Of a DNA stretch of 64,000 nucleotides, positions 28,873 to 60,818 are shown piece after piece. The stretch is from Balneolaceae bacterium. Its GTDB lineage: Bacteria > Bacteroidota > Rhodothermia > Balneolales > Balneolaceae. The notes under the pieces are model-generated. The model had not been told where the DNA came from. It was given only the letters and a program-made list of their open reading frames with translations, and searched no databases. The stretch lies in the NCBI GenBank assembly GCA_036381435.1, contig DASVCW010000045.1:54616-118615 (forward strand). The letters are read 5' to 3'. Numbering within the stretch: position 1 is the first letter of the stretch; each line of letters starts with the position of its first letter. A program made the translations under genes and the position numbers.

Positions 28873-28893
28873 AAGTTTTTCGCAGGCTTTTAG

Positions 28894-32279: not shown

Positions 32280-33116
32280 ATGAATCGCTCGCGGAAAACC
32301 CCCAATATAAAAGTGCTGATGTATCACCGGTTAAGCAAAGAAAAACCGGAGAAGCTGGGTGATTTGCATGTGGTTCATGTTGATGATTTTCGGCGCCAGT
32401 TAAGACTAATTGAAGCTCTTAATTTCATGCCCATAACTTTTGAAGATTATCTTCTTTACCGGGAAGGAAAGTTAACGCTTCCTAAGAAGCCTATCATTCT
32501 AACTTTTGATGACGGTCATTTAGATACTTTTGAACTGGCGCTGCCCATTCTTAAAGAATTTGATATGCGGGCGGTGATTTTTGTACTTGGAAACAGAAAA
32601 CAACGCTACGCTCACTGGGAGAACAAGCACGATGAAACAAACTATCCGCTGATGGAGGATCAGCATATTATAGAAGCCAGAGAAGACGGTTTTGAAATCG
32701 GAGCACACTCCATGACACATGCCGATTTATCAAAGCTGGGACAAAAAGCCATGCAGCGAGAAATAAAAGGTTCTAAAGAATCTATTGAATCGCTATTGGG
32801 AGAATCTATTGTGAGTTTTGCTTATCCCTTTGGCGGTGTGGCAAGAAATGTAATATCCATTACCCAGCAGGCCGGTTTTAAGTATGGCTGTGGCGTTTAT
32901 ACCGGTCCTCCGAATTTCGGTGATGATAACTTTGATATCCGTAGATTAGCGATTACATCAAAAACCAACACAGCGGCTTTTTTAATGCGTTTGTTAACTC
33001 CTTATGAATATGTAGAGTGGTTTTACGGCAAAATGAAGCATAAGTATGTTTCCATTGATAATGAACCGGAGTTAAACACACCGGCAGTTAATTATGAACG
33101 GACGTTACGGCGATAG
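32280..33116 (+). CDS. NodB/CE4 polysaccharide deacetylase, no signal peptide
   Basis: 'LMYHR', 'TFDDG', 'HSMTH', 'FAYPFG'. Confidence 0.92.
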   Translation: MNRSRKTPNIKVLMYHRLSKEKPEKLGDLHVVHVDDFRRQLRLIEALNFMPITFEDYLLYREGKLTLPKKPIILTFDDGHLDTFELALPILKEFDMRAVIFVLGNRKQRYAHWENKHDETNYPLMEDQHIIEAREDGFEIGAHSMTHADLSKLGQKAMQREIKGSKESIESLLGESIVSFAYPFGGVARNVISITQQAGFKYGCGVYTGPPNFGDDNFDIRRLAITSKTNTAAFLMRLLTPYEYVEWFYGKMKHKYVSIDNEPELNTPAVNYERTLRR

Positions 33117-34330: not shown

Positions 34331-35437
34331 TTGAGGACACTATTTTTAATTTCGAAGGGTATGAACAAACTATCAGATGAAGAGATCAGATTTTTGGAGG
34401 AAAGGGATTTATGTCCGCGAGTTTCATTATTAGAGGAGGAATTGAATACGCAACTGTTAGATGAACGATATTTACAAACTATTCCACTTATCAGGAAAAT
34501 GATTTATAAGCTATTGCCTGTCAACTTTGCCCTGATCATGGAGGCCTGGATTATTCACCGGCAGTATGATGCCGTTCTTTCGTATTACGAACGCGTAGGT
34601 TTGCCTTTCGCCTACTTACAAAAAATATTCGGCTCCGATACTCCTCACATTTTGCTCACTACCTGGCTTAGCTCAGATGCAAAAGTGTGGTTTCTAAAGC
34701 GGGTTCATGAAAAGCTATCAAAAATTGTGACCTGGTCATCTGTGCAGCGTGATTATGCCATTAACGAGATAGGCGTTTCACCCGAAAAAATTAAACTGCT
34801 AAAGCGCGGAACAGATCAAAAATTCTGGCGCCCGATGAAAGCAGAGACAGATATGATTTGCTCCGCTGGCATGGAGATGAGGGATTACCCCACAATGATA
34901 GAAGCACTAAAATCATTAGATATTCCTTGCCACATCGCCACCGGAAAAGCCCGGGGACAATTATTCGATACGGTTAAAAGGCTATACGAAATGGACGATA
35001 TCCCAAGGCACATTACCGTGGGCAGCAAATCGTATTTGCAAATGAGAGAGATGTATGCACGCAGCCGTTTTGTGGTGGTGCCGTTGCTTGAAACCGACAC
35101 CGATAACGGTTTAACAGTCATTCTGGAAGCTATGGCCATGGGCAAAGCGGTAATTTGTTCAGAAGTAGAGGGGCAAGTTGATGTGATTGAAGACGGCGTA
35201 ACCGGTGTTTATGTGCCACAGGGTGATGCAAAAGCACTTAGAAAGGCGATTCTTGATCTTTGGAATAATCCCGAAAAGGCTGAAAAAATGGGAAAAGCTG
35301 CTCGCGAACACATAGAAAAGGTTCATAATCTCGAGCAGTTTGTTGATGGAATTAAAGCAGAAATAACGAAAAAGACCAATGGCGTGCGCGAAACAGTCGG
35401 CAGCCTTGGTATAGAAAAAGCCAGTGTTGAAGTATGA
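34331..35437 (+). CDS. GT4 glycosyltransferase, tandem paralog (TTG start)
   Basis: Shares 'DMICSAGMEMRDYPT' and 'DNGLT.ILEAMAMGKAVICS' with 33125..34246. Confidence 0.9.
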   Translation: MRTLFLISKGMNKLSDEEIRFLEERDLCPRVSLLEEELNTQLLDERYLQTIPLIRKMIYKLLPVNFALIMEAWIIHRQYDAVLSYYERVGLPFAYLQKIFGSDTPHILLTTWLSSDAKVWFLKRVHEKLSKIVTWSSVQRDYAINEIGVSPEKIKLLKRGTDQKFWRPMKAETDMICSAGMEMRDYPTMIEALKSLDIPCHIATGKARGQLFDTVKRLYEMDDIPRHITVGSKSYLQMREMYARSRFVVVPLLETDTDNGLTVILEAMAMGKAVICSEVEGQVDVIEDGVTGVYVPQGDAKALRKAILDLWNNPEKAEKMGKAAREHIEKVHNLEQFVDGIKAEITKKTNGVRETVGSLGIEKASVEV

Positions 35438-37143
35438 AGAATATTATTATCGTATTGCTGCTTTGTTCTGTTTTAACGAGCTGTGGAGAGGACTCTTTTG
35501 AACCGTTCGTTGCCATAAATTTAGTGGGTTATAACTTGGACGATCCCAAAACAGCTTTTCTGGTTAATGCCCGTTCAGATTCTTTTGAAATTGTTAATGC
35601 AAGCAGTGAGGAAGTTTATTCAGGAAAAATTGCAGATCCGCTGCCGGTCGATTCTCTTTCAGGTGATCAGGTTTCGATCATTAATTTTTCGGATTTTCGC
35701 CAAAAGGGTGAATTTGTTATCCAAACCATGGGACCGGAAAAAATAAAATCACAGCCGTTTAGTATCGGGCAAAATTTATATAAAGATGTAGCTCTCACAA
35801 CTATCCAAAGTTATTATTATGCGCGCTGCGGTACTGCTATCGACAATGGAAATCCCTGGAAGCATCCTGTTTGTCACCTTGATGACGCCGTTTTTTGGGG
35901 CAATCCTGACCGGTATAAAAAAGTAACCGGCGGCTGGCATGATGCGGGGGACTATAACAAATTTTCAATCAACACTGCGCTTAGTGCCGGATTACTGCTG
36001 TACATTTACGAGATCAATTCGCAAGTATTCATTGATAATCAGTTTAACATACCCGAAGCAGATAACGGAACGCCGGATTTGCTTGACGAAGTTCGATGGG
36101 CGCTGGAATGGCTGATGAAAATGCAGAATAATGAAGGCGGGGTTTTTCATAAGGTTTCACAAAAGCATTGGGTGGGTGAATTTTTGCCGCAAAACGATCC
36201 CGAGGTGCGGTATATTTTTAAGGTAACCACCAATTCTACGGCTGGTTTTACGGCTGTTGCGGCTCTCGGTGCTCAACTTTTTGCACCCTTTGATACTGTT
36301 TTTGCAGATCAGCTTGCAAAGGCTGCTTTCAGAGGATGGCAGTATCTTCAGGAACATCCTGATATTCAGCCTTCTGGAGGGTTTGAAAATCCCCCGGGTG
36401 TCGTGGGCGGGGAGTATGCTGATGATCATGACAAGGATGTACGGCTTTGGGCCGCAATTGAGCTTTATAAACTGACGCAGGACGAAAAGTACCTGCAATA
36501 CTTCACCCGTACACTCGCTGATTACCAAATTGATAATTTGCCGCCTCTGAGCTGGAAAAATTTCGAAGTTCTCGCCTTAAGCGCCTTTTTAAATGCTGAT
36601 CTGCCCCGGGAATACCAAGAACAACAACAGCAAATTTATGATCTGCTCAACGGGCAGGCCAAACGGTTGCTAAAGCTTCATCAAGCAAATAATTATCGTC
36701 ACCTGCTGAAGGAAAATGAATTTTACTGGGGATCGAACAGCGTTAACCTGGCTTACGCTTTTGTTTTGATTCAGCTTTATGAGCAGAACGGAAATCAGGA
36801 ATATTATAGGGTGGCCTTAGATCAGTTGCATTATACGCTGGGAAGGAATCCTATGGATATTTCTTATGTAACAGGTATCGGGAATTCTTCGGTTCAAAAT
36901 CCCTACCACCAGTTTTCAGAAAAACTAGGCGTTGAAAAACCCGTTCCGGGAATGCTTGTCGGCGGTCCTAACAATCATCTTGATTTGAGGGGACATGATA
37001 TTTCCGACTATCCCGCTAAAAGTTATGAAGACCGTTTTAAAAACTATCTGGTTAATGAACCGGCTATAAATTATACGGCAATATTTGCCTATGTAGCAGG
37101 CTATTTTGCATCACCTCAAAAAGAATTTTTTACTAAACAATGA
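35434..37143 (+). CDS. GH9 endoglucanase-family lipoprotein with N-terminal Ig-like (CelD_N-type) domain
   Basis: Lipobox 'VLTSC'; 'GGWHDAGDY', 'LLDEVRWALEW', 'NEPAINYTA' catalytic motifs. Confidence 0.9.
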   Translation: MKNIIIVLLLCSVLTSCGEDSFEPFVAINLVGYNLDDPKTAFLVNARSDSFEIVNASSEEVYSGKIADPLPVDSLSGDQVSIINFSDFRQKGEFVIQTMGPEKIKSQPFSIGQNLYKDVALTTIQSYYYARCGTAIDNGNPWKHPVCHLDDAVFWGNPDRYKKVTGGWHDAGDYNKFSINTALSAGLLLYIYEINSQVFIDNQFNIPEADNGTPDLLDEVRWALEWLMKMQNNEGGVFHKVSQKHWVGEFLPQNDPEVRYIFKVTTNSTAGFTAVAALGAQLFAPFDTVFADQLAKAAFRGWQYLQEHPDIQPSGGFENPPGVVGGEYADDHDKDVRLWAAIELYKLTQDEKYLQYFTRTLADYQIDNLPPLSWKNFEVLALSAFLNADLPREYQEQQQQIYDLLNGQAKRLLKLHQANNYRHLLKENEFYWGSNSVNLAYAFVLIQLYEQNGNQEYYRVALDQLHYTLGRNPMDISYVTGIGNSSVQNPYHQFSEKLGVEKPVPGMLVGGPNNHLDLRGHDISDYPAKSYEDRFKNYLVNEPAINYTAIFAYVAGYFASPQKEFFTKQ

Positions 37144-38336
37144 TTATTTTCGAAATTGCACAATATTGTTTTGCAGTTGTAACAGGAGTATTGCTGGGCT
37201 ACCAGATGATGCTCAGCTTTTCGGCTCTTAAAGGGCGGAAAATAGAAGATTTTAAAACCGACCGTCAGCGGAAATTTGCTATCGTTATACCGGCACATAA
37301 CGAAGAAAAAGTAATAGCAAAAACGCTGTATAGTCTTGGTGCTCTTGTCTATCCCAAAAATTTATATGATTTGATTGTGGTGGCGGACAATTGTACCGAT
37401 AACACTGCCAAAATCGCCGGTAATCTGGGAGCTACCGTTCTTGAAAGAACCAACAAAGAAAAGCGCGGTAAAGGTTATGCCTTGCGCTGGGGATTTGACC
37501 GCATTTTGCAGGGGGATAAAAAGTATGATGCCGTAATTGTTTTTGATTCCGACAGCCTTGTCTCCGGTAATTACCTGGAAGTGATGAACTATTATATCAG
37601 TCAGGGAAGCAGGGTGATCCAGAGCAGTGACTTGGTTTTGCCGCAGTCGGGAGCCTGGAGTAGCGAAGCAACACGTATAGGTTTTCTGCTCTATAATTAT
37701 GTAAAACCAATTGGACGAAAAGTTTTGGGTTATGATATGGGTCTTCGCGGAAATGGTATGTGCTTTACTACTGATATACTGAAAGAGGTGCCGTGGCAGG
37801 CTTGGTCGCTAACGGAGGATGTTGAATATGGGCTAATTCTGATGCTTGAAAATATCCGCATTGATTTTGCTCCCGAGGCTGATGTTTGGGCAGAAATGCC
37901 GGCGAAGCCTAAAAATGCCGAGTCACAGCGAAAGCGATGGGAGATGGGCCGGTATCCTATTGTTCAAAAATATGCACCCAAATTGTTAATAGCTGCCATT
38001 CGCCAAAAATCATCCCGCTATATCGATACCCTAATCGATCTGGTAACACCACCTTTGGTAAACTTACTGCTATTTGTGTTAGTGATGGGCTTTTTAAACA
38101 TCATTTTATGGCTGTTCGGATGGAGTACTATTAATTTTCTGTTAATTTGGATTGGCGTGGCTTTGCTGGGCGTGCTTCATCTTTTTGTGGGATTATATGC
38201 TGCAGGAGCAGATAAAAATATCTATAAATCAATCTTATATATTCCAATGTATGCTTTTTGGAAGCTAAAATTATATGTAAAAGCTTTTACCGGAGGCACT
38301 GAACGCCATTGGGTGAAAACAAAGCGGGAGCACTGA
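37140..38336 (+). CDS. GT2 glycosyltransferase, membrane-bound (PgaC/cellulose-synthase-like)
   Basis: 'IPAHNEE', 'ADNCTD', 'FDSD', 'TED', 'QRKRW' motif, C-terminal TMs. Confidence 0.9.
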   Translation: MIIFEIAQYCFAVVTGVLLGYQMMLSFSALKGRKIEDFKTDRQRKFAIVIPAHNEEKVIAKTLYSLGALVYPKNLYDLIVVADNCTDNTAKIAGNLGATVLERTNKEKRGKGYALRWGFDRILQGDKKYDAVIVFDSDSLVSGNYLEVMNYYISQGSRVIQSSDLVLPQSGAWSSEATRIGFLLYNYVKPIGRKVLGYDMGLRGNGMCFTTDILKEVPWQAWSLTEDVEYGLILMLENIRIDFAPEADVWAEMPAKPKNAESQRKRWEMGRYPIVQKYAPKLLIAAIRQKSSRYIDTLIDLVTPPLVNLLLFVLVMGFLNIILWLFGWSTINFLLIWIGVALLGVLHLFVGLYAAGADKNIYKSILYIPMYAFWKLKLYVKAFTGGTERHWVKTKREH

Positions 38337-38356
38337 TTAGATAAACAAGTCATTTT

Positions 38357-38455
38357 AAGCCATTAAAATGGTTTCCTTTGGTTGGAATACTGTTAACCCC
38401 GGATTAATCCGGGGGTTAATGAAAAACATCAAGGAGTGAACCGTTTCAACGGTTT
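38357..38455. repeat. family D three-hairpin element, copy 1
   Basis: aagccattaaaatggttt, gttaaccccggattaatccgggggttaat, aaccgtttcaacggttt; copy at 63677..63775. Confidence 0.7.
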
Positions 38456-38495
38456 ATCAAGAATGATTTTTTTAACTTATAAATTCTAAAAAACT

Positions 38496-39830
38496 ATGAT
38501 CACAAAAGAGATTAAGAATGTTAATGGGCATTCTAAAAAGATGGGGAACAAGGATTATGCTTATCAGATTATTTCGACTGAAGAGGAGTTTGAGGCGACA
38601 GAAGAAGAATGGACAGAATTAACTAATCATTCAGGATCAAAAATATTTCAAACATTCGACTGGCAGCGCATCTGGTGGAACTATTACGGGAAGGGGCTGG
38701 AACTAAATATAGTTCTGATACGAAAATATGAAAAGCTTATTGGCATTTTGCCAACTTTCATAGACTCTTATCAATCTTTTGGAAAGCCGGTTTATCGTTG
38801 CCTTCGTTTTATAGGATCGACTATAATGCAACCCAATGATACCAAAGTAGCCGGTTTTGTGGCCCAGGCCGGCTACTTAGATGTTATTGCCCGGTCCGGT
38901 TATGAAGATACTGTTATTAAATCGGTACAAGAATATTTGAATAATTATTGCAGTGAAATTCACCGAATTGCTTTTGATGAAGTTCCCGAGGACAGCCTGT
39001 TACACAGTGTGGTTGATAATTTAAAACAGAATCAGGCAAAATATTGGAATATATCGTTAAACAAGGCATCAGCTTGCCCTGCCATTCAGTTCCCCGAATC
39101 ATGGGATCAGTTTTTGAGCAACCTGAGCAGCAATGCAAGATATCAGATCAGGCGGGATGTAAAAAAAGTATATAACAGCAAAAAGAAGCTGTATGATTTA
39201 AAAATGATAGAGTCAGCTGAAGAAGTGATAACTGCTTATCAAACAATGGTTGATTATCATCAAAAGAGATGGAATAAAAGGGGGCTGCCGGGCAATTATG
39301 CAAACAAGAGCAGATATGATTTTAGAAAAGAGGTTTTAAAGCGGTTTTATGAGCTGGGATATTTACAGTTTCAGGTACTGACACCGAAAGATAAGCCTGA
39401 TGAATACCTGGCGCTGGACTTGCTTTTTAACTATAAGAATAAGATTTACTTAATTGAACGTGCTTTTAATGGGAGTGCCGACAAGAGTCATATGGGTTTT
39501 GGCAACATTCTTTTATACTCAGTGCTTAAGGAAGGAATGGATAACGGAGCAAAAGAATATGACTTTCTGCGTGGTACCGAAAGTTATAAGCTTCGCACAG
39601 CCAATCATATCGGCCAAAATTTACAGATCACTTTTGACCGGGCAAATAACTTTAAGTTCGGCAAAAAGTATTTGTTCGAATTAATACAGTTACGGATCGA
39701 GATAAAGCGGCGTTTTAACTGGGAAGTAGCAGCATTGCAGGCCCTGGCCCTGGAAAAAAATTATTTTAGGGCAGGAATTCAAATCGCTGTGACGCGATTT
39801 CTCCAAAAGTGGAAAAAAATTAATTCGTGA
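38496..39830 (+). CDS. GNAT (CelD/BcsL-like) protein 2
   Basis: 'FQTFDWQRIWW', 'SACPAI', 'HQKRW...GLPG', 'YDFLRGTESYK'. Confidence 0.85.
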   Translation: MITKEIKNVNGHSKKMGNKDYAYQIISTEEEFEATEEEWTELTNHSGSKIFQTFDWQRIWWNYYGKGLELNIVLIRKYEKLIGILPTFIDSYQSFGKPVYRCLRFIGSTIMQPNDTKVAGFVAQAGYLDVIARSGYEDTVIKSVQEYLNNYCSEIHRIAFDEVPEDSLLHSVVDNLKQNQAKYWNISLNKASACPAIQFPESWDQFLSNLSSNARYQIRRDVKKVYNSKKKLYDLKMIESAEEVITAYQTMVDYHQKRWNKRGLPGNYANKSRYDFRKEVLKRFYELGYLQFQVLTPKDKPDEYLALDLLFNYKNKIYLIERAFNGSADKSHMGFGNILLYSVLKEGMDNGAKEYDFLRGTESYKLRTANHIGQNLQITFDRANNFKFGKKYLFELIQLRIEIKRRFNWEVAALQALALEKNYFRAGIQIAVTRFLQKWKKINS

Positions 39831-39875
39831 AGAAGAAATTACGCATATATGAATAATGTAGAGTTACACGTCTGA

Positions 39876-40034
39876 GCCATCCCCCTGCGCCCCCTTCTAA
39901 GGGGGATGAATGCTCCGCTGATAGCATCAGCGGATTTCCTGTCCATAACGCCATTCAATTATAAAATTAGAATTAAATGGCTGAATTATTGAAAACAATT
40001 CAGCTTAATTCCCCTTTGAAGGGGGCGCAGGGGC
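39876..40034. repeat. family A modular palindromic element
   Basis: gccatccccctgcgcccccttctaaggggg, ccgctgatagcatcagcgg, ctgaattattgaaaacaattcag, cccctttgaaggggg. Confidence 0.8.
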
Positions 40035-40067
40035 TTTGGTATTCGTTTTACATCAGGGTTCGCTTCC

Positions 40068-40084
40068 TGTAAAAATATTGCACA
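40068..40084. promoter_or_regulatory. candidate activator-binding site (TGT-N11-ACA)
   Basis: TGTAAA-AATAT-TGCACA about 85-100 bp upstream of the 40167 promoter. Confidence 0.4.
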
Positions 40085-40166
40085 TAGCTGTTTATTTCTT
40101 CATATAAGATTTACCCATTATTCAAAATTTATTCAATCATCACCCTTGTCTTAACCTGAACTAGTC

Positions 40167-40184
40167 TTGGCATAGTTGTTGTGT
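40167..40184 (+). promoter_or_regulatory. sigma-54 promoter for the GT4-ATP-grasp x3-GNAT operon
   Basis: TTGGCATAGTTGTTGTGT, 46 bp before the ATG. Confidence 0.7.
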
Positions 40185-40229
40185 TCATTATAATAAAGAA
40201 GCCTTTAAAGAGAGACATCAAACATACAC

Positions 40230-41426
40230 ATGAAAATACTTCATCTCTTTCCATACCTCCCGTCGCCACCAACCTTTGGGGGAGCTTTACGGGTGTATCA
40301 TATTTTAAAGCACCTCAGTCAAAATCATGAAGTGACAGTGGGAGGATTCTGTGATTTTGGAGATATGGAATTATTCAAAGAAGATTTCCCGGGCGTGGAT
40401 GGTCACCTGTTTGTGCAACGGAGACGGGTAAATTACCGCCGGTTAATGCAGTTTTGTTCCCTTTTTACCCCTCACAGTTATTGGTATAACTGGGGGCAAT
40501 CACCAAAGCTGGAATCAAAGGTAAGAGCTCGTATCGCCGAAGAAGATTTCGATATCATTTTGGGTGAATTTGCATCTATGGGACATTTTGACCTTGAAAC
40601 GGATGCCATTCGAATTATGGATGCTCACAATATTGAATACGATAACTTTCGGAGAATGAGCACTCTCGAATGGTCCGGAATCAGAAAATGGTTTTACGAG
40701 CGGGAATCTGAGAAATGTTATTCCGAAGAGGTAAAGGCTTTTAAACGACATGATGCCATTTTTGCTACTTCAGAACGGGATAAAGCCATTATAGAAAAAA
40801 ATGCCCCTGGTATTCCCAAATTTGTGATTCCTAACGGGGTTGACACAAACTTTTTTTCAGCCAGTGAAACAGAGATTGAGCCGTTCTCGATGGTATTTAC
40901 CGGCGCCTTAAGTTATGTGCCGAACTATGACGGTATGATTTATTTTTTAGATGAAATTTTTCCCATCATTCAAAAAGTAGTTCCACAAGCAAAAGTTTAT
41001 ATCGTAGGCAGCAAGCCACCGGCCACATTGAAAAAATATGAGTCAAATTCGGTAACCGTTACCGGTTTTGTGGATGATGTTCGTCCCTATGTAGATCAGT
41101 CAAGCGTTTTTGTAGTTCCGCTAAGAATGGGCAGCGGCACACGCCTTAAAGTAGTTGAAGCGCTGTCGATGAAGAAACCGGTCGTTTCAACAAGTATAGG
41201 CTGCGAAGGCATAGATGTAAACGACAACGAGCATTTAATGGTGCGCGATGAACCCGCCGCTTTTGCTGAAGCGGTAATAAACCTTTTTAAAGATTCAAAA
41301 ACACGAAATAAACTGGTTGAAAATGGTTATCAACTGGTTAAACAAAAGTACGATTGGCAAGTAATAGGGCGATCGATAGACAACGCCTTTCAAGAGTTAA
41401 CATCAAACAAAAATATAATGGTATAA
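40230..41426 (+). CDS. GT4 glycosyltransferase
   Basis: 'PYLPSPPTFGGALRVY', 'VIPNGVD', 'FTGALSYVPN', 'GSGTRLKVVEALSMKKPVVST'. Confidence 0.92.
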   Translation: MKILHLFPYLPSPPTFGGALRVYHILKHLSQNHEVTVGGFCDFGDMELFKEDFPGVDGHLFVQRRRVNYRRLMQFCSLFTPHSYWYNWGQSPKLESKVRARIAEEDFDIILGEFASMGHFDLETDAIRIMDAHNIEYDNFRRMSTLEWSGIRKWFYERESEKCYSEEVKAFKRHDAIFATSERDKAIIEKNAPGIPKFVIPNGVDTNFFSASETEIEPFSMVFTGALSYVPNYDGMIYFLDEIFPIIQKVVPQAKVYIVGSKPPATLKKYESNSVTVTGFVDDVRPYVDQSSVFVVPLRMGSGTRLKVVEALSMKKPVVSTSIGCEGIDVNDNEHLMVRDEPAAFAEAVINLFKDSKTRNKLVENGYQLVKQKYDWQVIGRSIDNAFQELTSNKNIMV

Positions 41427-41430
41427 AATT

Positions 41431-42717
41431 ATGGCTATTTATTCGGGGGAATTTATAGATTTAGAGAATCCGGTTCTCGTAATCGGAGAAATGGGATTAG
41501 TGAGGAGCTTGGGAGAGATGGACCTGCCGCTTTTTTTGGGCACTGAAATCGAAAAAAATATTGCGGCGCATTCACGCTATGTAAAACAGCGCTTTTTCTT
41601 CTCGCCCTACGACAGTGAAGAATTTATTGATGAGCTGTGTGAACTGGGATATTATTTTAAGAAAAAACCGGTGATTTTGAGTGATGATGACCGGGCTATT
41701 TTAAATATTTCTGAAAACCGTAATAAATTGAAAGCTTATTATCTTTTCTTATATCCTGAGAGAAAAACGGTTAATAAGATACTGAATAAGCAGTACTTCA
41801 GTGAATTAGCCGAAAGGCACGAGCTTCCGGTTCCCGTATCTTATCAAACCACTTCTTCGCGCGATTTTAGGGAGGTGGCGTCTAAAATTAACTATCCATG
41901 TATTATCAAACCCACCCAGCGCCATTTTTGGTGGGGTGATGATTTTATTGAACAAATGGGACATTATCAAAAAGCCGTTAAATGTTCGGATCTTTATCAA
42001 TTTAAAGATACTTGTCAAAAAATATCGGAGGTTAATCCAAGTGTAGTAATTCAGGAATATGTTGAAGGAGATGACAAACAGCACTATAGCGCCAACTTAT
42101 TTGTGGATGAAAGAGGGAAGCTGCAAGGGTACTATATCGCCCGCAAAAAGCGGATTTATCCCATAAAAGCAGGTACCGGAAGCTATGTGGAAACGGTGGT
42201 TAATCCTGCAGTGCTTGAAATTTCAATGAAGATAGTAGAAAAGCTGGGGCTCAGGGGGCTTGTAAACATACAGTTTAAACAAGACAGTCGAACGGCAGAA
42301 TATAAGCTGTTAGAAATTCACGCCCGTAATAGCCTCTGGAGCCTTCTTGGAGCCAAGGCAGGAGCTAACTTGGCCTATCTTTATTATAACTATTTGGTAT
42401 ATGGGCTGCATCACGATAACGTCATTAAGGCCAGGCCAAACATTAAATATTTTAATCTGTCAAAAGATGTTCGGGCCTTACTGGCCTACCGGAATGAAGG
42501 GAAACTGACGGTGGCAGAATGGTGGCAGTCGCTACGGGGGGAGCGGATATTCGCAGCTTTTTCATGGAAAGATCCGCTGCCGGCACTGTTCAAAATTTGG
42601 GACATCGTTTTGAATAGTCTAAAACGAGCTGTTAAGAAAAAGCTGCCGCAACCCAAAAGGCTAAAGCATGAAAGCTTTTTAACACGGAACGCTAGTTTTT
42701 TAACCAGAATATTTTAG
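41431..42717 (+). CDS. ATP-grasp carboxylate-amine ligase 1 (D-aspartate-ligase-like)
   Basis: 'SDDD', 'LNKQYF', 'YPCIIKP', 'VVIQEYVEG', 'NIQFKQD', 'LLEIHAR'. Confidence 0.85.
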   Translation: MAIYSGEFIDLENPVLVIGEMGLVRSLGEMDLPLFLGTEIEKNIAAHSRYVKQRFFFSPYDSEEFIDELCELGYYFKKKPVILSDDDRAILNISENRNKLKAYYLFLYPERKTVNKILNKQYFSELAERHELPVPVSYQTTSSRDFREVASKINYPCIIKPTQRHFWWGDDFIEQMGHYQKAVKCSDLYQFKDTCQKISEVNPSVVIQEYVEGDDKQHYSANLFVDERGKLQGYYIARKKRIYPIKAGTGSYVETVVNPAVLEISMKIVEKLGLRGLVNIQFKQDSRTAEYKLLEIHARNSLWSLLGAKAGANLAYLYYNYLVYGLHHDNVIKARPNIKYFNLSKDVRALLAYRNEGKLTVAEWWQSLRGERIFAAFSWKDPLPALFKIWDIVLNSLKRAVKKKLPQPKRLKHESFLTRNASFLTRIF

Positions 42718-42721
42718 TGTT

Positions 42722-43936
42722 ATGGAACAAAATCATCATCCCGCATTAATATTGGGTGAAATCGGGTTAGTGCAAAGCTTGGGTGAGGCCGGCGTTCCTG
42801 TCTATATCGGAACCGAAATCAGGGATAACCCCTCACTTTTTTCCCGTTACAATCAAAAAACCGTTTGTTTTTCTGATTATACCTCTCCCGAATTTATTGA
42901 TGAGCTTTGCAAATTTGGTGAAACCTTAGAACAAAAAGCGGTTATTTTTAGTGATGATGATCATGCTATTTTAAACATCAGTCAGCATCAAGAGCGCATT
43001 AAAAACTATTTTTTATTCACTTTTCCACAAGCCGAAAAAGTTAAAAAATTGCTCGACAAGCAATTGTTTTGTGAAATTATCGAGCAATACAATTTACCGG
43101 CTCCAAAGTCTATAACACTTTCATCCGTTCAGGAAATGGCAGTAAAAGATGTTTCAGAGCTTAACTTCCCTTGCATCATCAAGCCTTCCTTCAAACAAGC
43201 CTGGTGGGGTACTGATTTTGATAAAAAAGTGGGTGATTATCAGAAAGCGATAAAGTGTGAGTCTTATGATGATGCGGTGCAAAAATATGAACAAATTGCA
43301 GAAGTGAATCCACACGTGGTTATTCAGGAATTTATTGAAGGCAAAGAAGATCAGCTTTACAGTGTAAACATGTATGTGGGTAATGAAGGAGATCTTAAAG
43401 GTTATTTCATCGCTCAAAAATTGCGCACCTATCCTGTTCAGGCCGGTGAAGGTTGTTATATCGTCACGGTCCGTGATGATGAAATGATAGCTATGGCCAT
43501 GACTATCGCTGATAAAATTGGTTTAAAGGGGCTTTTAAACATCCAGTTTAAGCGGGACCGGCGCAGTGGAAAGCCGGTTTTATTAGAAATACATGCCCGA
43601 AACAGCGTTTGGAGCTATTTGGGTACAGAGGCAGGCGTTAATCTTGCTGCGCTTTATTATGAGGATTTAACGGGGGGGAAACGATTTAAAATTCCTGATT
43701 ATAAAGCGGGAGTTACATTCATTTTTTTACAAAAAGACATCAAAGCATTCATCCAAAATTTTAGAATGAAGCAAATTTCAATCGGTAAGTGGATCGCCTC
43801 GTATTTCAGGAGATTTATAGTGGCGGGTTACCGGTGGAATGATCCATTGCCACTACTTATGACGTTGTATTTTTTCATCAGAAGGAGGCTATATGTACAC
43901 AATGTAAAGCTCTTCCCTAAAAGCACAATGCCATAA
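42722..43936 (+). CDS. ATP-grasp carboxylate-amine ligase 2
   Basis: 'FPCIIKP', 'VVIQEFIEG', 'NIQFKRD', 'LLEIHAR'. Confidence 0.85.
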   Translation: MEQNHHPALILGEIGLVQSLGEAGVPVYIGTEIRDNPSLFSRYNQKTVCFSDYTSPEFIDELCKFGETLEQKAVIFSDDDHAILNISQHQERIKNYFLFTFPQAEKVKKLLDKQLFCEIIEQYNLPAPKSITLSSVQEMAVKDVSELNFPCIIKPSFKQAWWGTDFDKKVGDYQKAIKCESYDDAVQKYEQIAEVNPHVVIQEFIEGKEDQLYSVNMYVGNEGDLKGYFIAQKLRTYPVQAGEGCYIVTVRDDEMIAMAMTIADKIGLKGLLNIQFKRDRRSGKPVLLEIHARNSVWSYLGTEAGVNLAALYYEDLTGGKRFKIPDYKAGVTFIFLQKDIKAFIQNFRMKQISIGKWIASYFRRFIVAGYRWNDPLPLLMTLYFFIRRRLYVHNVKLFPKSTMP

Positions 43937-43991
43937 GTCAACATTAAAGAGAAATTTAAAAGATAATCACAATTACAAATCAGCATATATA

Positions 43992-45158
43992 ATGATTAAT
44001 CAGAAGTCTCCTGTGTTAACCTTTAGCGCATTAGGTTTAATACATTGTCTGGGAACAGCAGGAATTCCTGTTTATACTGCATCAGAAGAAAAACCAAACG
44101 TAGCATCTTATTCAAGATACTCTAAAAAACACACTATTTTTTCACCATTCGCTTCAGAAGCATTCATAGATGAGTTATGTGATTTGGGAAATTCATTCGA
44201 TGGAAAGATTGCTTTAATGTGGACTCATGATGGAGCCGGGCTCAACATTTCTAATAATAGAGAACGGCTTAAAGAAAATTTTCTGTTTCGTCTACCCCAT
44301 CCTGAAATGGTAAAAAAAATATTAAACAAATTATTGTTTTGCCGACTTTGCGAAGAATATGATTTACCGGCACCTGAATCTGTTGAGGTATCTCAATTAG
44401 ATGAACTAAAGAAAGCAAAAAAACGATTAAAGGCACCATTCATTATTAAACCGGCTCATACTTATTATTGGTATCATAAAGATTTTTCAAAGATCATAGG
44501 TAACTATCAAAAAGCATTTATTTTCCAAAATTTTGATGAAGTTGAAGCCTTTTATAAGAAAATATCAAAAATTAATCCCAATGTGGTTTTACAGGAATAT
44601 GTAGTGGGTGATGATCATCAGTTGTTTGATGTTAATTTACACATCAATCAAAAAGGAGAAATAGATAGTTATGCAATAGCCCAAAAAATGCGCGTTTATC
44701 CCCCAAAAGCAGGGTGGGGCTGTTATGTAAAAACAATATTTGATGAGGAGTTACTTGAAATATGTAAAAGAATTATAGCAAAGCTGGAACTTAAAGGAAT
44801 GATGAATATTCAGTTCAAGAGGGATGAGCGAACCAATCAGCCGAAGCTAATCGAAATGCACCCCAGAACCAGTATTTTCGATTTTCTTGGAACCGCGGCA
44901 GGTCAAAATATCCCTTTAAAGTATTACTCTAGTTTAACAGGCATACAAATTGGTGAATCGAAGCAGTATCAAACTGACATTAAATACATCAATATTGCCA
45001 GAGATTTGCGGCTGTTAATTCGGCATCGAAAAGATTATGGGCTTTCACTGATGGAGTGGATGAAAAGTTACAGCGGTGTTTCTGTTTACGACGGAATGAT
45101 GTTAAAAGATCCGCGGGTGCTTTACCATGAGCTTCGATCTGCTTTTATAAATAGTTAA
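43992..45158 (+). CDS. ATP-grasp carboxylate-amine ligase 3
   Basis: 'APFIIKP', 'VVLQEYVVG', 'NIQFKRD', 'LIEMHPR'. Confidence 0.85.
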   Translation: MINQKSPVLTFSALGLIHCLGTAGIPVYTASEEKPNVASYSRYSKKHTIFSPFASEAFIDELCDLGNSFDGKIALMWTHDGAGLNISNNRERLKENFLFRLPHPEMVKKILNKLLFCRLCEEYDLPAPESVEVSQLDELKKAKKRLKAPFIIKPAHTYYWYHKDFSKIIGNYQKAFIFQNFDEVEAFYKKISKINPNVVLQEYVVGDDHQLFDVNLHINQKGEIDSYAIAQKMRVYPPKAGWGCYVKTIFDEELLEICKRIIAKLELKGMMNIQFKRDERTNQPKLIEMHPRTSIFDFLGTAAGQNIPLKYYSSLTGIQIGESKQYQTDIKYINIARDLRLLIRHRKDYGLSLMEWMKSYSGVSVYDGMMLKDPRVLYHELRSAFINS

Positions 45159-45271
45159 CTTACTGTTAATACTTTAGTTATATTATTTTTTAAAGCGGGT
45201 ATATACGTTCAAAAATACAACATCAAGATGAGTTTTAGTTCAGGAATTCAGAAAAATAGGAAAGTCTGACA

Positions 45272-46627
45272 ATGAGTATTGAGGAACATCAAATAAAGAA
45301 AACAGAATTAATTGATTTAAAAGAGAATGGAGGGAGTGAAAATTCTTCAGATGGAACATTAAATGTTTTAGTGATTTCAGGCACTGAAATGTTTGACGGT
45401 ATTTCAGAGGAATGGCGGAACGTAGCTGAAATTTCAAGTACTTACATTTTTCAAACTTATGAATGGAACCGGATCTGGTGGAAACATTTCGGGGACGGCC
45501 AGCAGTTGAATATTCTGCTTTTTTATCAGGATGATTTACTGCTTGGCATCGCGCCATTATTTCTTGACAAGGTTACCTTTATGGGACTCAAAATGTACTC
45601 TTGTCTTCGTTTTATTGGTTCTACCGTAAGTCAGCCTGAAGGAGAGGATTTAAAGGGACTTTTACCTTATTCCGATTATCTCGACCTGATCATTCGTCCC
45701 GGTTACGAGAGGCAAGTTAACCGGAAATTTATGGAATATCTGGCAAATAATGAGCTGGATTTTAATGAAGTAGTTTTAGATGAAATACCTGAAAACAGCT
45801 CATTGAGGAACTATTTAATGCCGGATTTAGAAGAGCAGGACAAGGATTACCTGGTGCAGCAAAGTTCCGCTTGTCCCGTCATAGAATTAGGTCGTTCCTG
45901 GGATGAGCACTTGGCTGACATGAGCAAAAGCTCGCGATATAAAACACGGCGTTTTATAAAACAGGCAGAAAAACCGGGTTATAAGATTTTTGAAATAAAA
46001 GAAGCCCCCGATAAAGCCGGAATAGAAAAAGCTTATGAAAAACTGGTGAAATTACATCAAAAACGATGGAAGGATTTGGGCTATCCCGGAATCTTCGATG
46101 AGAAGCGAATGTACAATTTTCTGAAAGAGATAACACTGGAGTTTTTTGATCACGGATGGGCACAATGTAAATTAGCTCATTCGATCGAAGAAAATGGCAA
46201 GTGCATAGCCGTTGATCTGCTCTTCAAATATAAACGGCGCGAGTACCTGGTGCAGCGCGCCTTAGATTCCGATTCACCATCTGCCGAACACGGCCCGGGG
46301 AATGTATTGCTTTATGTGATGTTAAGAGATGCGGCAGAAAAGGGTATTGAGGAGTTTGACCTTTTGAGGGGCACTGAATCTTATAAGTTTCGATCTGCTA
46401 ATAGCTTATTAAAGAATGATACCGTCACCTTTAAAAACCCCGGCAAAAAGCTTGCTTTGAACTTTGGGTTCACCAAAAAATTTATCAAGTCCAGAAGAAG
46501 GTTCAGGATTGAACATGAACAGTTTAAAATTTTTCTAAACGGAGAGAAAAACCTGTTCAATAATATTCATGATTACGGTAATTTTTTATATAACCGTCTG
46601 TCACTGAAATTCAATTCGAAAGGATGA
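45272..46627 (+). CDS. GNAT (CelD/BcsL-like) protein 3
   Basis: 'FQTYEWNRIWW', 'SACPVI', 'HQKRW...GYPGIF', 'FDLLRGTESYK'. Confidence 0.85.
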   Translation: MSIEEHQIKKTELIDLKENGGSENSSDGTLNVLVISGTEMFDGISEEWRNVAEISSTYIFQTYEWNRIWWKHFGDGQQLNILLFYQDDLLLGIAPLFLDKVTFMGLKMYSCLRFIGSTVSQPEGEDLKGLLPYSDYLDLIIRPGYERQVNRKFMEYLANNELDFNEVVLDEIPENSSLRNYLMPDLEEQDKDYLVQQSSACPVIELGRSWDEHLADMSKSSRYKTRRFIKQAEKPGYKIFEIKEAPDKAGIEKAYEKLVKLHQKRWKDLGYPGIFDEKRMYNFLKEITLEFFDHGWAQCKLAHSIEENGKCIAVDLLFKYKRREYLVQRALDSDSPSAEHGPGNVLLYVMLRDAAEKGIEEFDLLRGTESYKFRSANSLLKNDTVTFKNPGKKLALNFGFTKKFIKSRRRFRIEHEQFKIFLNGEKNLFNNIHDYGNFLYNRLSLKFNSKG

Positions 46628-46633
46628 GGAGGG

Positions 46634-46672
46634 GCAGTGAACAGTGATCAGTTAACAGTAATCAGTGGACAG
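46634..46672. repeat. imperfect heptamer tandem repeat (nCAGTnA)
   Basis: gcagtga-acagtga-tcagtta-acagtaa-tcagtgg-acag. Confidence 0.65.
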
Positions 46673-46752
46673 AATTTAGCTCTCCGAAGGAGAGCCTGCT
46701 AACTGCTAAGCTAAAGAAATATCTCGCGCTGGTGATTTATCACGGTCAATGT

Positions 46753-46945
46753 CTAATTCAACGGAAGCGAGAGGGAACGTTGGAAAAACTCAATCAAACT
46801 TATTTTTGGTGAGTCTTCAACAGAAAGAACAACCACACTGTCTTTACCATGCTTAGTAACCGTTTGCGGACCTTCTTCCGTTGCTTTTCGAACTACTTCG
46901 TTAAATTTATTTTTGGCCTTGAAGCTGTCATTTTGCAAGTTTCAT
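46753..46945 (-). pseudogene. Phd/YefM antitoxin remnant
   Basis: ATG AAA CTT GCA AAA TGA CAG CTT CAA G GCC AAA AAT AAA TTT...: MKLAK*QLQ, frameshift, then AKNKFNEVVRKATEEGPQTVTKHGKDSVVVLSVED; no toxin gene beside it. Confidence 0.75.
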
Positions 46946-47064
46946 AATCACCTGTTTTTTCTGTCCGGTCTATCTATAAATTACATACTGTTTAACAAGA
47001 GTTGGAAGATTGTAGCGAAGAATGGAAAGAAAATTTGCGAAAACTAACTGACAAGCTGACTTTT

Positions 47065-47106
47065 TCCAGCATCCAGCATCCAGCATCCAGCATCCAGCAT
47101 CCAGCA
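47065..47106. repeat. perfect heptamer tandem repeat (TCCAGCA)x6
   Basis: Six exact copies directly after the WecB/TagA stop codon. Confidence 0.95.
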
Positions 47107-47107
47107 T

Positions 47108-47881
47108 CTAATACTTATTACTGACTTTAAGAATCAGCACATTTAAGGCAAAGAGCGGCAGTTTGAGCATCCGGCGCCAGCGCTGGGGTTGGTTACACAA
47201 GCGGTAAAACCATTCTAATCCACTTTTTTGCAGCCATTTTGGTGCCCTTTTAACATTACCTGCAATAAAATCAAAGGTGCCGCCAATACCGATAATCAAC
47301 TTGCAGTTTGGCAGCTTTGGCAGGTTTTCATTAATCCATTTTTCCTGAGCCGGTGCTCCGAGGGCCACGAAAACGACAGAAGCATTTTGTAGTTGTTCCC
47401 GTTTGTCGTCAGGCAACTCCTCAAGCGGGATATCCGGTTTTTCAGGTGAATATGTGCCCGAAATGTTAAAGCTTTCAATTCTACTTTGGAGAATAGTGGC
47501 AGCTTTTTCTGCTACTGTTGGCATAGCACCATAAAGAAATGCTGATTCATGATGCTTGCCGCAAAGAGCACATATATTTTCTAAAGAATCTGATCCCGTT
47601 ATTCGATCTACGTGTTTATTGTACAAAAATTCTATAGCCCAGCTAATGCCAACTCCGTCTGCGGTATTTATACTTGATGATGTAAGAATATGTTTGAATT
47701 CATTATCAATAATAGACTGAATGACAATTTCGGGATTTACGGTAATGACAAACACAGGGGGAGTGACGGGGTCATTATCCTTCAATCGGGATTCTATAAG
47801 TTCATAAAATTCATCTCTTGAATATGGAGAAATATCTACTCCAAGAACCGAATAAGGTTCTTTTTTGTCTAATACCAGCAT
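47108..47881 (-). CDS. WecB/TagA/CpsF (GT26) glycosyltransferase
   Basis: 'VITVNPEI', 'ADGVGI', 'RITGSD', 'ALGAPAQEKW', 'GIGGTFD', 'RAPKW.QK.GLEWFYRL..QP.RWRR'. Confidence 0.93.
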   Translation of the reverse strand: MLVLDKKEPYSVLGVDISPYSRDEFYELIESRLKDNDPVTPPVFVITVNPEIVIQSIIDNEFKHILTSSSINTADGVGISWAIEFLYNKHVDRITGSDSLENICALCGKHHESAFLYGAMPTVAEKAATILQSRIESFNISGTYSPEKPDIPLEELPDDKREQLQNASVVFVALGAPAQEKWINENLPKLPNCKLIIGIGGTFDFIAGNVKRAPKWLQKSGLEWFYRLCNQPQRWRRMLKLPLFALNVLILKVSNKY

Positions 47882-54970: not shown

Positions 54971-56743
54971 ATGGGTAAAGTAAATACGCGCAGACATATC
55001 GGGGATCTCCTTGTAAACAAGGGCGTTATCACTCAGGAGCAAAACCATGAGGCGTTAGCGATACTTGGTGAAGAACCGGAATCATCCAATCGCAGACTGG
55101 GCCAAATTCTTTATCAGGATTTAGGGCTTGACCGGCACAGGGTGATGAAAGAAATCGCCGCTATTTATGCCTTTGATGAAATTTTCAGCGACCGTGAATC
55201 GGTGAACGGGGATGTGATTGAAAAAATTAAATCAAACATCAACGAAATGCCCGCCGAGGTAGTTGATGAACTGGTTCACCAAAAAGCCGTACCCCTAAAA
55301 AAGCATCGCAATTCGCTCACCATTGCTGCGGCAGACCCTTCCGACCCCGTGTTGACGAATGTCGTTTCTAAACTGAATTTTAAACATCACGAAATTCTTT
55401 ATTGTCGGTATGAACTGGTAGAGCAGATCCTGACCCAGGTTTACGAACAGAAAAATGAGTTTCTGGACCTGCTCGAAGATATTGAGTACGAAGAGCCTGA
55501 CCTGGAGGAAGAAAGTGAGGAGATTAATGAAGAAGAGATTGATGCTGAAATTAACCAGAGCATGCTCAATTCTTTGGTTGAGGGCTTTCTGGTTGAGGGC
55601 GTGCGAAAAGGGGTCAGTGATATTCACATCATACCCAGCGGACCCTCAACAACCGATATACGGTTTCGTATTGACGGAAAGCTGCAGCTATGGCATCAGC
55701 AGAGTAATGTAAAACCCGAAGCTATTTCGGCGGTTGTGAAAGACAAAACCCGTAACGTAGACCGTTTTGAGCGTGATGCCTCTCAAGATGGTTTTATACA
55801 GCGTACCGTCGATAATCACAGTATTCGTTACCGGGTTTCCATTATGCCTATGGTAGGTAAAGAATTCGAGCGCAAGTTTGAATCAATTGTAATTCGTATT
55901 CTTGATGACCGGAAGGTAATTACCGACTTAAATGTGTTGGGGCTTCAGGAAAAAGCCAAAGCAGATTTCGTAAAAGCCATCGAAAAACCTTCAGGTATTG
56001 TGATTGTAACCGGACCTACCGGCAGCGGTAAATCCACAACGCTCGTTGCTGCGTTATACTATGTGATTGATCCGACGGTAAACGTACTAACAGTAGAGGA
56101 GCCGGTTGAATATTTAATTTCCGGGGCACGTCAGTTGAAGCTGAGCCACCACATGACTTTCGATCATGCCATGCGAGGAATTTTGCGTCATGATCCTGAT
56201 ATTGTACTTGTAGGTGAGATTCGCGACCTTAAAACGGCAGAAATTGCTATTAAACTGGCGAATACGGGTCACTTAACCTTTTCAACCCTGCACACCAACG
56301 ATGCGCCGAGTGCGATTTCCCGTCTGTATAAGATGGGGGTTGAAACGTTTCTTATTGCCAATGCCGTAAACCTGATTATGGCCCAGCGCCTTGTACGGCG
56401 CCTTTGCAGTGATTGCAAGGAAGTATATGAACCGCATGCTGAGGTAGCTAAAGGCATCGGTTTTACCGAACAAGAGATAGAAGAAACAACCTTCTATAAA
56501 GCAGTGGGATGCGATAAGTGTACCAACGGTTATAAAGGGCGGACAGCCATTATGGAAGCTCTTTATTTCGATAAAGAAATTCGAAAAATGATTCTTGAAT
56601 CGGGCAATGAAATTGATGAAGTTGGCATCAAAGAACACGCAATGAGTCAGGGAATGCTTAGTTTGCGGGGTTCGGGCCGAGAACGAATTAAAAACGGGGT
56701 TACCACTATCGAAGAGATAGTGGCGATTACAATTGAAGATTAG
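54971..56743 (+). CDS. pilB: type IV pilus assembly ATPase (PilB/GspE) with MshEN-like N-terminus
   Basis: 'HIGDLLVNKGVIT...RRLGQIL'; 'SDIHI', 'GPTGSGKSTT', 'TVEEPVE', 'LVGEIRD', 'STLHTN', Zn-binding 'CSDC...CDKC'. Confidence 0.92.
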   Translation: MGKVNTRRHIGDLLVNKGVITQEQNHEALAILGEEPESSNRRLGQILYQDLGLDRHRVMKEIAAIYAFDEIFSDRESVNGDVIEKIKSNINEMPAEVVDELVHQKAVPLKKHRNSLTIAAADPSDPVLTNVVSKLNFKHHEILYCRYELVEQILTQVYEQKNEFLDLLEDIEYEEPDLEEESEEINEEEIDAEINQSMLNSLVEGFLVEGVRKGVSDIHIIPSGPSTTDIRFRIDGKLQLWHQQSNVKPEAISAVVKDKTRNVDRFERDASQDGFIQRTVDNHSIRYRVSIMPMVGKEFERKFESIVIRILDDRKVITDLNVLGLQEKAKADFVKAIEKPSGIVIVTGPTGSGKSTTLVAALYYVIDPTVNVLTVEEPVEYLISGARQLKLSHHMTFDHAMRGILRHDPDIVLVGEIRDLKTAEIAIKLANTGHLTFSTLHTNDAPSAISRLYKMGVETFLIANAVNLIMAQRLVRRLCSDCKEVYEPHAEVAKGIGFTEQEIEETTFYKAVGCDKCTNGYKGRTAIMEALYFDKEIRKMILESGNEIDEVGIKEHAMSQGMLSLRGSGRERIKNGVTTIEEIVAITIED

Positions 56744-56761
56744 AACTACCGCGTTTAATGA

Positions 56762-56865
56762 TTAAAATGAAATATTGACCTGACAGCATACTAGCGGTCT
56801 TCTGGTTCCTGTCAGTGTCTTCACAAACAACGCTGTCAGGCCTTTTGGGCACTTACAGGTTGTTT
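56762..56865. repeat. family C two-hairpin element, copy 2
   Basis: Colinear with 32104..32210. Confidence 0.75.
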
Positions 56866-57066
56866 TAGAAGTTAATCGGCAAATGCGTTAGAACTATAAA
56901 AACCGGAGTGGCTATTACAAAAACTACCTGCAGCCTGCAGGTTTGTATTTTGTTTCAATCGCTTCATCGGTTCATTGAATGAATTTAAAAGTGGTTTTGG
57001 AAGTTAAACAGCGATACAAACAGTGTTTTATGGAGTTGACACAAGTTCAAAATAGGGGATAACACT

Positions 57067-57567: not shown

Positions 57568-57790
57568 CCAAAATTAAAACATTAAAAAATTTTAATTTTA
57601 AGTAATTTAGTGTTTTATTTATTCAGGAAGGGTACCAGTGGCTGGCTTGCTGAAATAGTTTAGGGGTTGTATGTTTCATCTGTTCAATTAGCAAGAAAAC
57701 AGGTGTGTTCATTTCCTCTCTATTAGAAAATATATCAGCTGTTACCGTTCTTTTAAACGTTGAATAATAACTGCAAAAATAGATCTGTGA

Positions 57791-60815: not shown

Positions 60816-60818
60816 TTT

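Follow-up and report, generated by a model that had tools for sequence, protein, structure and literature searches.

Among the closest described systems, D-aspartate ligase (Aslfm of Enterococcus faecium and AslA of Lactococcus lactis) is an ATP-grasp carboxylate-amine ligase that activates an amino acid as an acyl-phosphate and passes it to an amine on a glycan precursor, and it works alongside tRNA-dependent Fem transferases in building the side chains of peptidoglycan (PMC4155827). In the Caulobacter holdfast pathway, the FemX-like GNAT HfsK has been proposed to acylate amines that are exposed by the deacetylase HfsH (PMC5362036). In the Campylobacter jejuni capsule, the C-terminal amidoligase of Cj1438, an ATP-grasp domain fused to a glycosyltransferase, forms amide bonds on a surface polysaccharide (PMC11800379). 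Here, we analyze a stretch of 64,000 nucleotides (the window) from contig DASVCW010000045.1 of a Balneolaceae bacterium, in which three consecutive genes, AG1, AG2, and AG3, encode ATP-grasp ligases that carry a histidine in place of the asparagine of the E-x-N metal-binding motif.

The locus can be compared with each of these systems. As with D-aspartate ligase, ATP-grasp ligases are found together with FemX-like GNATs. However, no aspartate racemase or murein gene lies next to the ligases of the window, the neighbors are genes of an exopolysaccharide locus rather than of peptidoglycan synthesis, and the motif is E-x-H, not E-x-N. Many members of the family bear the name "D-aspartate ligase" as an automatic JGI label, and our comparison with Aslfm and AslA is one by description. 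As with HfsH and HfsK, a NodB-type deacetylase and a tandem-GNAT, FemX-like protein occur in one polysaccharide pathway, whereas no ATP-grasp ligase has been described for the holdfast and the acyl donor of HfsK is not established. Members of the wider family of AG1 to AG3 are also fused to GT4 or GT2 glycosyltransferases, like Cj1438, but Cj1438 belongs to the TupA-like ATP-grasp family and acts on the carboxylate of a uronic acid, glucuronate.

Our analysis places AG1 to AG3, on the evidence of the trees described below, as old paralogs of one clade within a large uncharacterized family of "carboxylate-amine ligase" ATP-grasp proteins. With a probability that we put at roughly 0.55, these His-type proteins would be active ligases that, together with the FemX-like GNATs, add amino acids to a sugar amine exposed by NodB on the lipid-linked repeat unit of a Wzx/Wzy polysaccharide.

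Three ATP-grasp ligases with a histidine at the E-x-N position

The coordinates of the three open reading frames (ORFs) and the codons of their E-x-H-x-R motifs (Table 1) are exactly those given in the first-pass annotation, an earlier reading of this DNA. The proteins are 38 to 42% identical to one another, AG3 being the most diverged. All three carry, after the lysine of IIKP, the segment W-[WY]-x2-D-F-x4-G-x-Y-Q-K-A, which had also been seen earlier in the form "W.(G/H).DF....G.YQKA." It appears to correspond in position to the flexible phosphate-binding loop of ATP-grasp enzymes, and only its W and K anchors are conserved across the family (71% and 92%, respectively, in the Asn-type group).

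When AG2 was compared with PDB sequences using phmmer, LLEIHARNS aligned with VIEMNPRVS of Escherichia coli CarB, the large subunit of carbamoyl phosphate synthase (CPS), and with EINPR of 2pn1, and the histidine thus occupies the Asn position of E-x-N. The NIQFK sequence of AG2 was likewise aligned with NVQFA of CarB. CarB, in which we take the metal ligands to be Q285, E299, and N301 and the catalytic residue to be R303, is the best sequence match among solved structures. It shares the E-x-?-x-R frame, and it has Gln at the first metal-ligand position, as AG2 does with Q275, where most Asn-type relatives have Asp or Glu. The two proteins differ in that CarB has Asn301 where AG2 has His, and they are only about 15% identical, with a different domain organization and a different chemistry, that of bicarbonate and carbamate.

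Membership in the superfamily was assessed from domain models, from a predicted structure, and from individual residues. All three ligases matched the Pfam models ATPgrasp_Ter (PF15632; 40.8, 42.4, and 33.4 bits, with a gathering cutoff of 29.1) and CPSase_L_D2, and no Ter-family (tellurite-resistance) domain was present in the Pfam matches of the scanned window ORFs. Every curated NCBIfam cutoff was far above the scores of the three proteins (PRK12767, "carbamoyl phosphate synthase-like protein": 45 to 63 bits versus 218 to 390). An AlphaFold2 (AF2) model of AG2 had a mean predicted local distance difference test score (pLDDT) of 91.1. A Foldseek search with this model gave generic ATP-grasp enzymes only (PurK, 2pn1, RizA, biotin carboxylase, and CPS), at 11 to 16% identity and E values of about 1e-16 to 1e-14, and neither Foldseek nor phmmer against PDB sequences found a solved structure of a close relative. 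The AF2 model, Foldseek, and Pfam agree on the three-part fold, with pre-ATP-grasp, RAGNYA, and kinase-like C-terminal domains.

Burroughs and colleagues describe four hallmark features of the ATP-grasp superfamily, E-x-N among them (PMC4431377). The two expected lysines are present, K113 (DK..F) and K154 (IIKP) being 99 to 100% conserved across the His as well as the Asn group; judged by motif position, they would be the linker lysine and the lysine of the second RAGNYA strand. R235, which lies in strand 225-235 of the AG2 model, and R293 are the arginines expected of the clade of amide-bond-forming ligases, and the whole set of K113, K154, Q202/E203, K233, R235, E289, and R293 is 97 to 100% conserved in both groups, with the corresponding catalytic motifs found in all three window paralogs. 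The metal site departs from the hallmarks in two places. The position of the first metal ligand, for which an acidic residue, typically Asp, is expected on the fourth strand of the kinase-like domain, is Gln in 100% of the His clade, and the fifth strand ends in E-x-H rather than E-x-N in all three ligases. In the AG2 model, the strands that hold these residues, 270-278 (with Q275) and 285-291 (with E289 and H291), are adjacent. Since the other catalytic residues of ATP-grasp enzymes are intact, AG1 to AG3 are very probably active.

The C-terminal end of AG2 (residues 374 to 397, at about 43841 to 43912) consists of a D-P-x-P motif conserved across the family and then a long helix that is hydrophobic and basic (376-397 in the model), and the C-terminal tail of AG1 is basic. 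Such a helix or tail might anchor the enzyme to the membrane, close to lipid-linked substrates.

Distribution, origin, and retention of the histidine

With AG2 as the query, 84 of 5.8 billion proteins were retrieved, AG2 itself included. The close homologs were mostly from Balneolaceae, with the best named match in Fodinibius. Among 80 close homologs, His was found at the motif in all except two, which have E-x-E, and one has D-x-H; the three distant matches have E-x-N. A profile search of 1.84 billion cluster representatives gave 15,472 matches at an E value of ≤1e-3, of which 2,464 were at ≤1e-30. In the best 150 of the 15,472 representatives, Asn was present in 128 aligned domains, whereas 13 proteins, all near the top of the list, had His, 2 had Gln, 1 had Glu, and about 10 had Thr. 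A second search with an Asn-only profile yielded 111 new proteins, 103 with Asn, 3 with Thr, and 5 with His, the last from the same clade. The earlier expectation that relatives typically read E-x-N-x-R was well founded, and by these counts E-x-H would be rare in the family, confined to a single clade rather than scattered. The Asn position is nevertheless not inviolable in this family, given the Thr, Gln, and Glu variants. A literature search found no published description of this His clade, but the general replacement is already known: across the superfamily, the Asn of E-x-N is occasionally exchanged for other polar residues (PMC4431377).

In a neighbor-joining tree, all 84 His sequences fell into one 89-member clade that also contained 2 sequences with Gln, 2 with Glu, and 1 (P0116) with a degenerate motif, and the sister lineage had Asn. 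A second neighbor-joining tree, to which genome loci had been added, gave the same picture and resolved AG1, AG2, and AG3 as separate old paralog lineages within Balneolaceae. The AG3 lineage, shared with L026 and P0090 to P0093, has few close relatives. The clade as a whole extends over Balneolaceae, Ignavibacteria-like genomes, and other Bacteroidota metagenome-assembled genomes (MAGs), with 1 to 3 copies per locus. The distinct subfamily proposed in the first-pass annotation is recovered in both trees, E-x-H marking a monophyletic group.

The active-site pattern of the His clade is N216/Q275/E289/H291/N294, and that of the sister sequence P0235 is N216/Q275/E289/N291/F294; on this comparison, only H291 and N294 would be new on the branch leading to the clade, with Q275 older. 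The Asn of E-x-N would thus have become His and the residue after the catalytic Arg would have become Asn, leaving Gln, Glu, and His as the metal-site residues. A swap of His and Asn between positions 216 and 291 was also considered. Position 216 is His in the largest Asn-type subfamily and Asn in the His clade, but the swap was rejected, as P0235 combines N216 and Q275 with N291 and as position 216 varies widely elsewhere.

The histidine is kept in 84 of the 89 clade members. Among 34 genes (those of 28 genome loci and of the window), its codon is CAT in 17 and CAC in 17. The codon has switched repeatedly while the amino acid was kept, and the residue therefore appears to be under purifying selection. 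This sustains the earlier claim that retention in the three diverged paralogs of the window implies selection, but with the qualification that the three represent a single inherited event and not three independent ones.

These data also bear on the idea that one or more of the paralogs, AG3 especially, is a noncatalytic partner or scaffold in which the His reflects relaxed constraint. The divergence of AG3, its few close relatives, and the degenerate motif of P0116 are consistent with such a role. However, AG3 keeps NK..F, IIKP, LQEY, NIQFK, and E-x-H-x-R, and the equal use of the two His codons speaks for constraint rather than decay, so that we regard this idea as very improbable.

The most likely role of the His is still that of a ligand to the second metal ion. 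Imidazole as a ligand suits Mn2+-like ions better than Mg2+, and the Gln/Glu/His set lacks one of the acidic residues of the usual Asp-or-Glu/Glu/Asn set. Placing a His side chain instead of Asn at the second metal ion might accordingly favor Mn2+-like ions over Mg2+, and the altered metal use or chemistry envisaged in the first-pass annotation is conceivable to that extent. Within the clade, His has later been replaced by Gln or Glu, which suggests that a generic polar ligand is enough at this position. A more radical possibility is that the His alters the chemistry, in which case it might act as general base toward the incoming amine, accept a phosphate transiently, or bind a transition metal that enables a non-amide product. 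The residue is fixed in a clade whose members have diverged to about 38% identity, it arose together with the change of F294 to Asn next to the catalytic Arg, and the metal site is less acidic than that of most Asn-type relatives, all of which would fit a new chemistry. Yet the exchanges of His for Gln or Glu occur in similar clade proteins with the same gene context, which speaks more for a generic metal-ligand or polar role than for a specialized one of the imidazole. None of the other ligase residues has changed, and polar replacements of this Asn occur now and then throughout the superfamily (PMC4431377). We consider a change of chemistry distinctly unlikely.

The polysaccharide locus and related gene neighborhoods

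The window carries a Wzx/Wzy-type polysaccharide locus, within which the ligases stand near one end (Table 1). Only 4 nucleotides separate the stop codon of the upstream GT4 gene from the start of AG1, and the same gap separates AG1 from AG2, all on the same strand. Two further genes, both GT4, lie after the NodB gene and before the GH9/GT2 pair.

Table 1. Features of the locus, with positions counted from the first letter of the window
Feature	Position	Strand	Basis or remark
Assembly/export genes: WecA-like initiating transferase, sigma-54-type AAA protein, PorV-like protein, and Poly_export (- strand); Wzz-like protein, tyrosine-kinase-like ATPase, Wzy-like polymerase, and Wzx flippase (+ strand)	13927-24367	- and +	
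Third Acetyltransf_6 tandem-GNAT paralog	24399-25742	+	Ortholog directly upstream of ligase, or fused, in other genomes (P0088; L022, L023)
NodB-type polysaccharide deacetylase	32280-33116	+	Pfam, NCBIfam; no obvious signal peptide by eye
Overlapping pair, GH9 hydrolase and GT2 (EpsU-like)	35434-38336	+	Pfam, NCBIfam
Second Acetyltransf_6 tandem-GNAT paralog	38496-39830	+	PF13480 plus weak FemAB_like match
GT4 glycosyltransferase directly upstream of AG1, in the same tight string	40230-41426	+	Pfam; kept beside ligase in 14 related loci
AG1, ATP-grasp ligase, 428 amino acids, His-type E295-I-H297-A-R299	41431-42717	+	ORF; Pfam ATPgrasp_Ter; motif positions
AG1 E-x-H-x-R motif, GAA ATT CAC GCC CGT	42313-42327	+	Codon reading
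AG2, ATP-grasp ligase, 404 amino acids, His-type E289-I-H291-A-R293	42722-43936	+	ORF; Pfam; phmmer; AF2 model; Foldseek
AG2 E-x-H-x-R motif, GAA ATA CAT GCC CGA	43586-43600	+	Codon reading; aligns with CarB E299-x-N301-x-R303
AG3, ATP-grasp ligase, 388 amino acids, E288-M-H290-P-R292	43992-45158	+	ORF; Pfam; motif positions
AG3 E-x-H-x-R motif, GAA ATG CAC CCC AGA	44853-44867	+	Codon reading
N-I-Q-F-K strand	AG2 43538-43552; AG1 42265-42279; AG3 44805-44819	+	phmmer alignment, motif positions
Lid/phosphate-loop segment W-W-x2-D-F-x4-G-x-Y-Q-K-A	AG2 43202-43249; AG1 41929-41976; AG3 44469-44516	+	Motif positions
Tandem-GNAT (Acetyltransf_6) with FemX-like predicted fold, directly downstream of AG3	45272-46627	+	Pfam, AF2, Foldseek
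WecG/TagA-family glycosyltransferase, convergent, at the end of the locus	47108-47881	-	Pfam

The three ligases of the window are matched by three tandem-GNAT paralogs, which are 25 to 33% identical to each other. An AF2 model of the one downstream of AG3 (mean pLDDT of 90.9) had its best Foldseek matches in FemX, the aminoacyl-tRNA-dependent peptide synthases Sba18/Sbb17, FemA, and MprF; a search of its sequence against the PDB gave nothing meaningful. Over positions 38300 to 47200, candidate promoters and terminators were not above shuffled expectation (27 versus 24.2 and 11 versus 7.1). A hairpin at 39914-39934 and, ahead of the GT4 gene, a promoter-like site with an 11/12 match at 40167-40194 hint only weakly at a separate transcription unit. 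An Rfam scan of the window gave zero matches, and the sequencing runs holding the sequence were of soil-metagenome DNA only.

Related loci were taken from 28 genomes found with an alignment-based search, a single-protein query having found none in the same genome collection. These loci contain one, two, or three ligase copies. An Acetyltransf_6 gene is near the ligase in 18 of the 28, often directly adjacent, and a NodB deacetylase is present in 15, directly after the ligase in L008 to L010. Fusions of GNAT and ATP-grasp domains were found in P0088, L022, and L023, and also in the Asn-type relatives P0243, P0309, and P0336. In the wider family, the ATP-grasp domain is fused to GT4, GT2, or NodB domains, and proteins with two ligase modules occur. 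Around the E-x-E variant P0077, the genes are ordered as in the window, namely, GT2, GNAT, GNAT, GT4, and ligase.

This neighborhood bears on the acceptor, for which the first-pass annotation had named either uronic acids or amino sugars freed by NodB. The accompanying deacetylase and FemX-like GNATs favor the amine, and the uronic acid half of the proposal found no support. If the acceptor were a uronic acid, the ligases would join an amine or amino acid by an amide bond to its C6 carboxylate, a reaction like that of the C-terminal domain of Cj1438 on glucuronate. The locus does have a transferase of the WecG/TagA family, in which some enzymes transfer ManNAcA. Cj1438, with its ATP-grasp amidoligase domain joined to a capsule glycosyltransferase, is the precedent (PMC11800379). 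Against it, no UDP-sugar dehydrogenase or other uronic acid synthesis gene was found among the scanned ORFs of at least 150 amino acids in the 64-kb window, the TupA-like family to which the Cj1438 domain belongs was not among the Pfam matches of AG1 to AG3 at an E value of ≤0.01, and the conserved or fused partners, a deacetylase and FemX-like transferases, point to a sugar amine as the acceptor. Amidation of a uronic acid is in our view unlikely.

The product of the enzymes could instead be small and soluble (a di- or tripeptide, for example, or a modified amino acid), with the polysaccharide context incidental or the product attached later. The L-amino-acid ligases RizA and BL00235 are among the Foldseek matches, and some clade members have neighborhoods of another kind, as described below. 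The tight same-strand string with the GT4 gene argues for a tie to polysaccharide synthesis, however, the Foldseek matches, at only 11 to 16% identity, are not specific to L-amino-acid ligases, and fusions to glycosyltransferase and deacetylase domains recur in the family. We give a soluble product little credence.

Several points weigh against the addition of amino acids to a sugar amine as the function of these ligases. Some clade members are found outside polysaccharide loci, beside a methyltransferase or a major facilitator superfamily (MFS) transporter (L007, L018, L021, L024, and L025), so the clade as a whole may not serve a single substrate. In other genomes, ligase genes and GNAT genes do not occur in a 1:1 ratio. 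Finally, both trees are neighbor-joining distance trees without support values.

Other features of these loci were also recorded. In L011 to L013, L016 to L018, L021, and L025, the gene immediately after that of the His-type ligase, on the same strand, encodes a class-I S-adenosylmethionine-dependent (SAM) methyltransferase (at about 11.1 to 12.1 kb in loci of 21 kb). These methyltransferase-linked loci are from Ignavibacteria-like and Bacteroidota MAGs, some without polysaccharide genes nearby, and in P0121, an Asn-type relative, the ligase and a methyltransferase of this type form one protein. In the P0077 locus (L039, 758-9251), an AMP-binding (adenylating) enzyme and an NTP-transferase/hexapeptide protein come before, and a second ATP-grasp gene lies beside a CpgS_N/DUF1611 gene at 12091-15025 of L039.

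Within the window, the GH9 and GT2 genes at 35434-38336 overlap by 4 nucleotides, and the best match of the GT2 protein is an EpsU model at 275 bits, below the cutoff of 700; GH9 homologs stand beside a GT2 gene in only four Balneolaceae/Bacteroidota loci (L002, L003, L008, and L009). Inside the polysaccharide locus, on the opposite strand, are two weak SGNH/GDSL-like genes and a carbamoyltransferase gene (26459-30753, - strand). No counterparts of these genes were found in 37 related loci (phmmer, E value of ≤1e-8); they look like an insertion specific to the window and may provide further decorations. The 645-amino-acid protein encoded at 13927-15864 (- strand) joins a WecA/MraY-type domain (PF00953, residues 87-239) to a CoA_binding_3 region (residues 391-614) that matches the WbaP/EPS_sugtrans models over their N-terminal half only; by domain content, components of the two kinds of initiating transferase are thus combined in an unusual way. 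Between it and Poly_export, at 15892-17729 (- strand), are a sigma-54-type AAA protein that has no DNA-binding domain and a PorV/PorQ-like outer membrane protein. Upstream of the polysaccharide locus, at 7797-13899 (- strand), are two GH5-like genes, a sulfotransferase gene, and a GH18 gene; in Gracilimonas tropica (L024, 6614-9937), GH18 and GH5 homologs lie directly upstream of a single His-type ligase gene. A cluster resembling a type IV pilus or type II secretion system, at 54971-63540, encodes two T2SSE ATPases, a cyclic-nucleotide-binding protein, a PilO-like protein, and a secretin bearing a C-terminal SPOR domain.

A proposed route to amino-acid decoration of the polysaccharide

The route that we favor would begin with the NodB-type deacetylase exposing a sugar amine on the undecaprenyl-linked repeat unit of the Wzx/Wzy-dependent exopolysaccharide. 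The ATP-grasp ligases would form an acyl-phosphate from a carboxylate and hand it over to the amine, and together with the three FemX-like tandem-GNATs they would attach amino acids, possibly as a short branch. ATP and aminoacyl-tRNA are confined to the cytoplasm. Since both are available only there, and since the NodB protein has no obvious signal peptide, the modification would presumably take place in the cytoplasm, before the repeat unit is flipped. The three ligases may correspond to three successive additions or to three acceptor specificities, and the double-ligase fusions found elsewhere fit either. A stronger form of this proposal is an assembly line on the exopolysaccharide like that of peptidoglycan side chains, in which NodB, three FemX-like transferases, and three ligases build a defined, short peptide branch and the Gln/Glu/His site is a real metal shift, for instance to Mn2+. 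We hold this version only tentatively and think it more doubtful than not.

From sequence, the His clade is a real but modest variant within a known kind of enzyme. Asn stands at the second-metal position in about 9 of 10 sampled family members, and if the His clade does differ in metal use, it would offer a natural experiment on what the ligand of the second metal does in ATP-grasp enzymes. Among cultured bacteria, a His-type ligase is carried by Gracilimonas amylolytica LA399 (single copy, locus L009) and by G. tropica. A full-text search of about 8 million papers joining ATP-grasp, FemAB, exopolysaccharide, and deacetylase found no paper describing a system of this kind. The recurring and sometimes fused trio of NodB, FemX-like GNAT, and ATP-grasp ligase, found in polysaccharide loci of Balneolaceae, Ignavibacteria-like, and other bacteria, points to an undescribed amino-acid decoration of surface polysaccharides, and this module may be a more interesting lead than the His variant itself.

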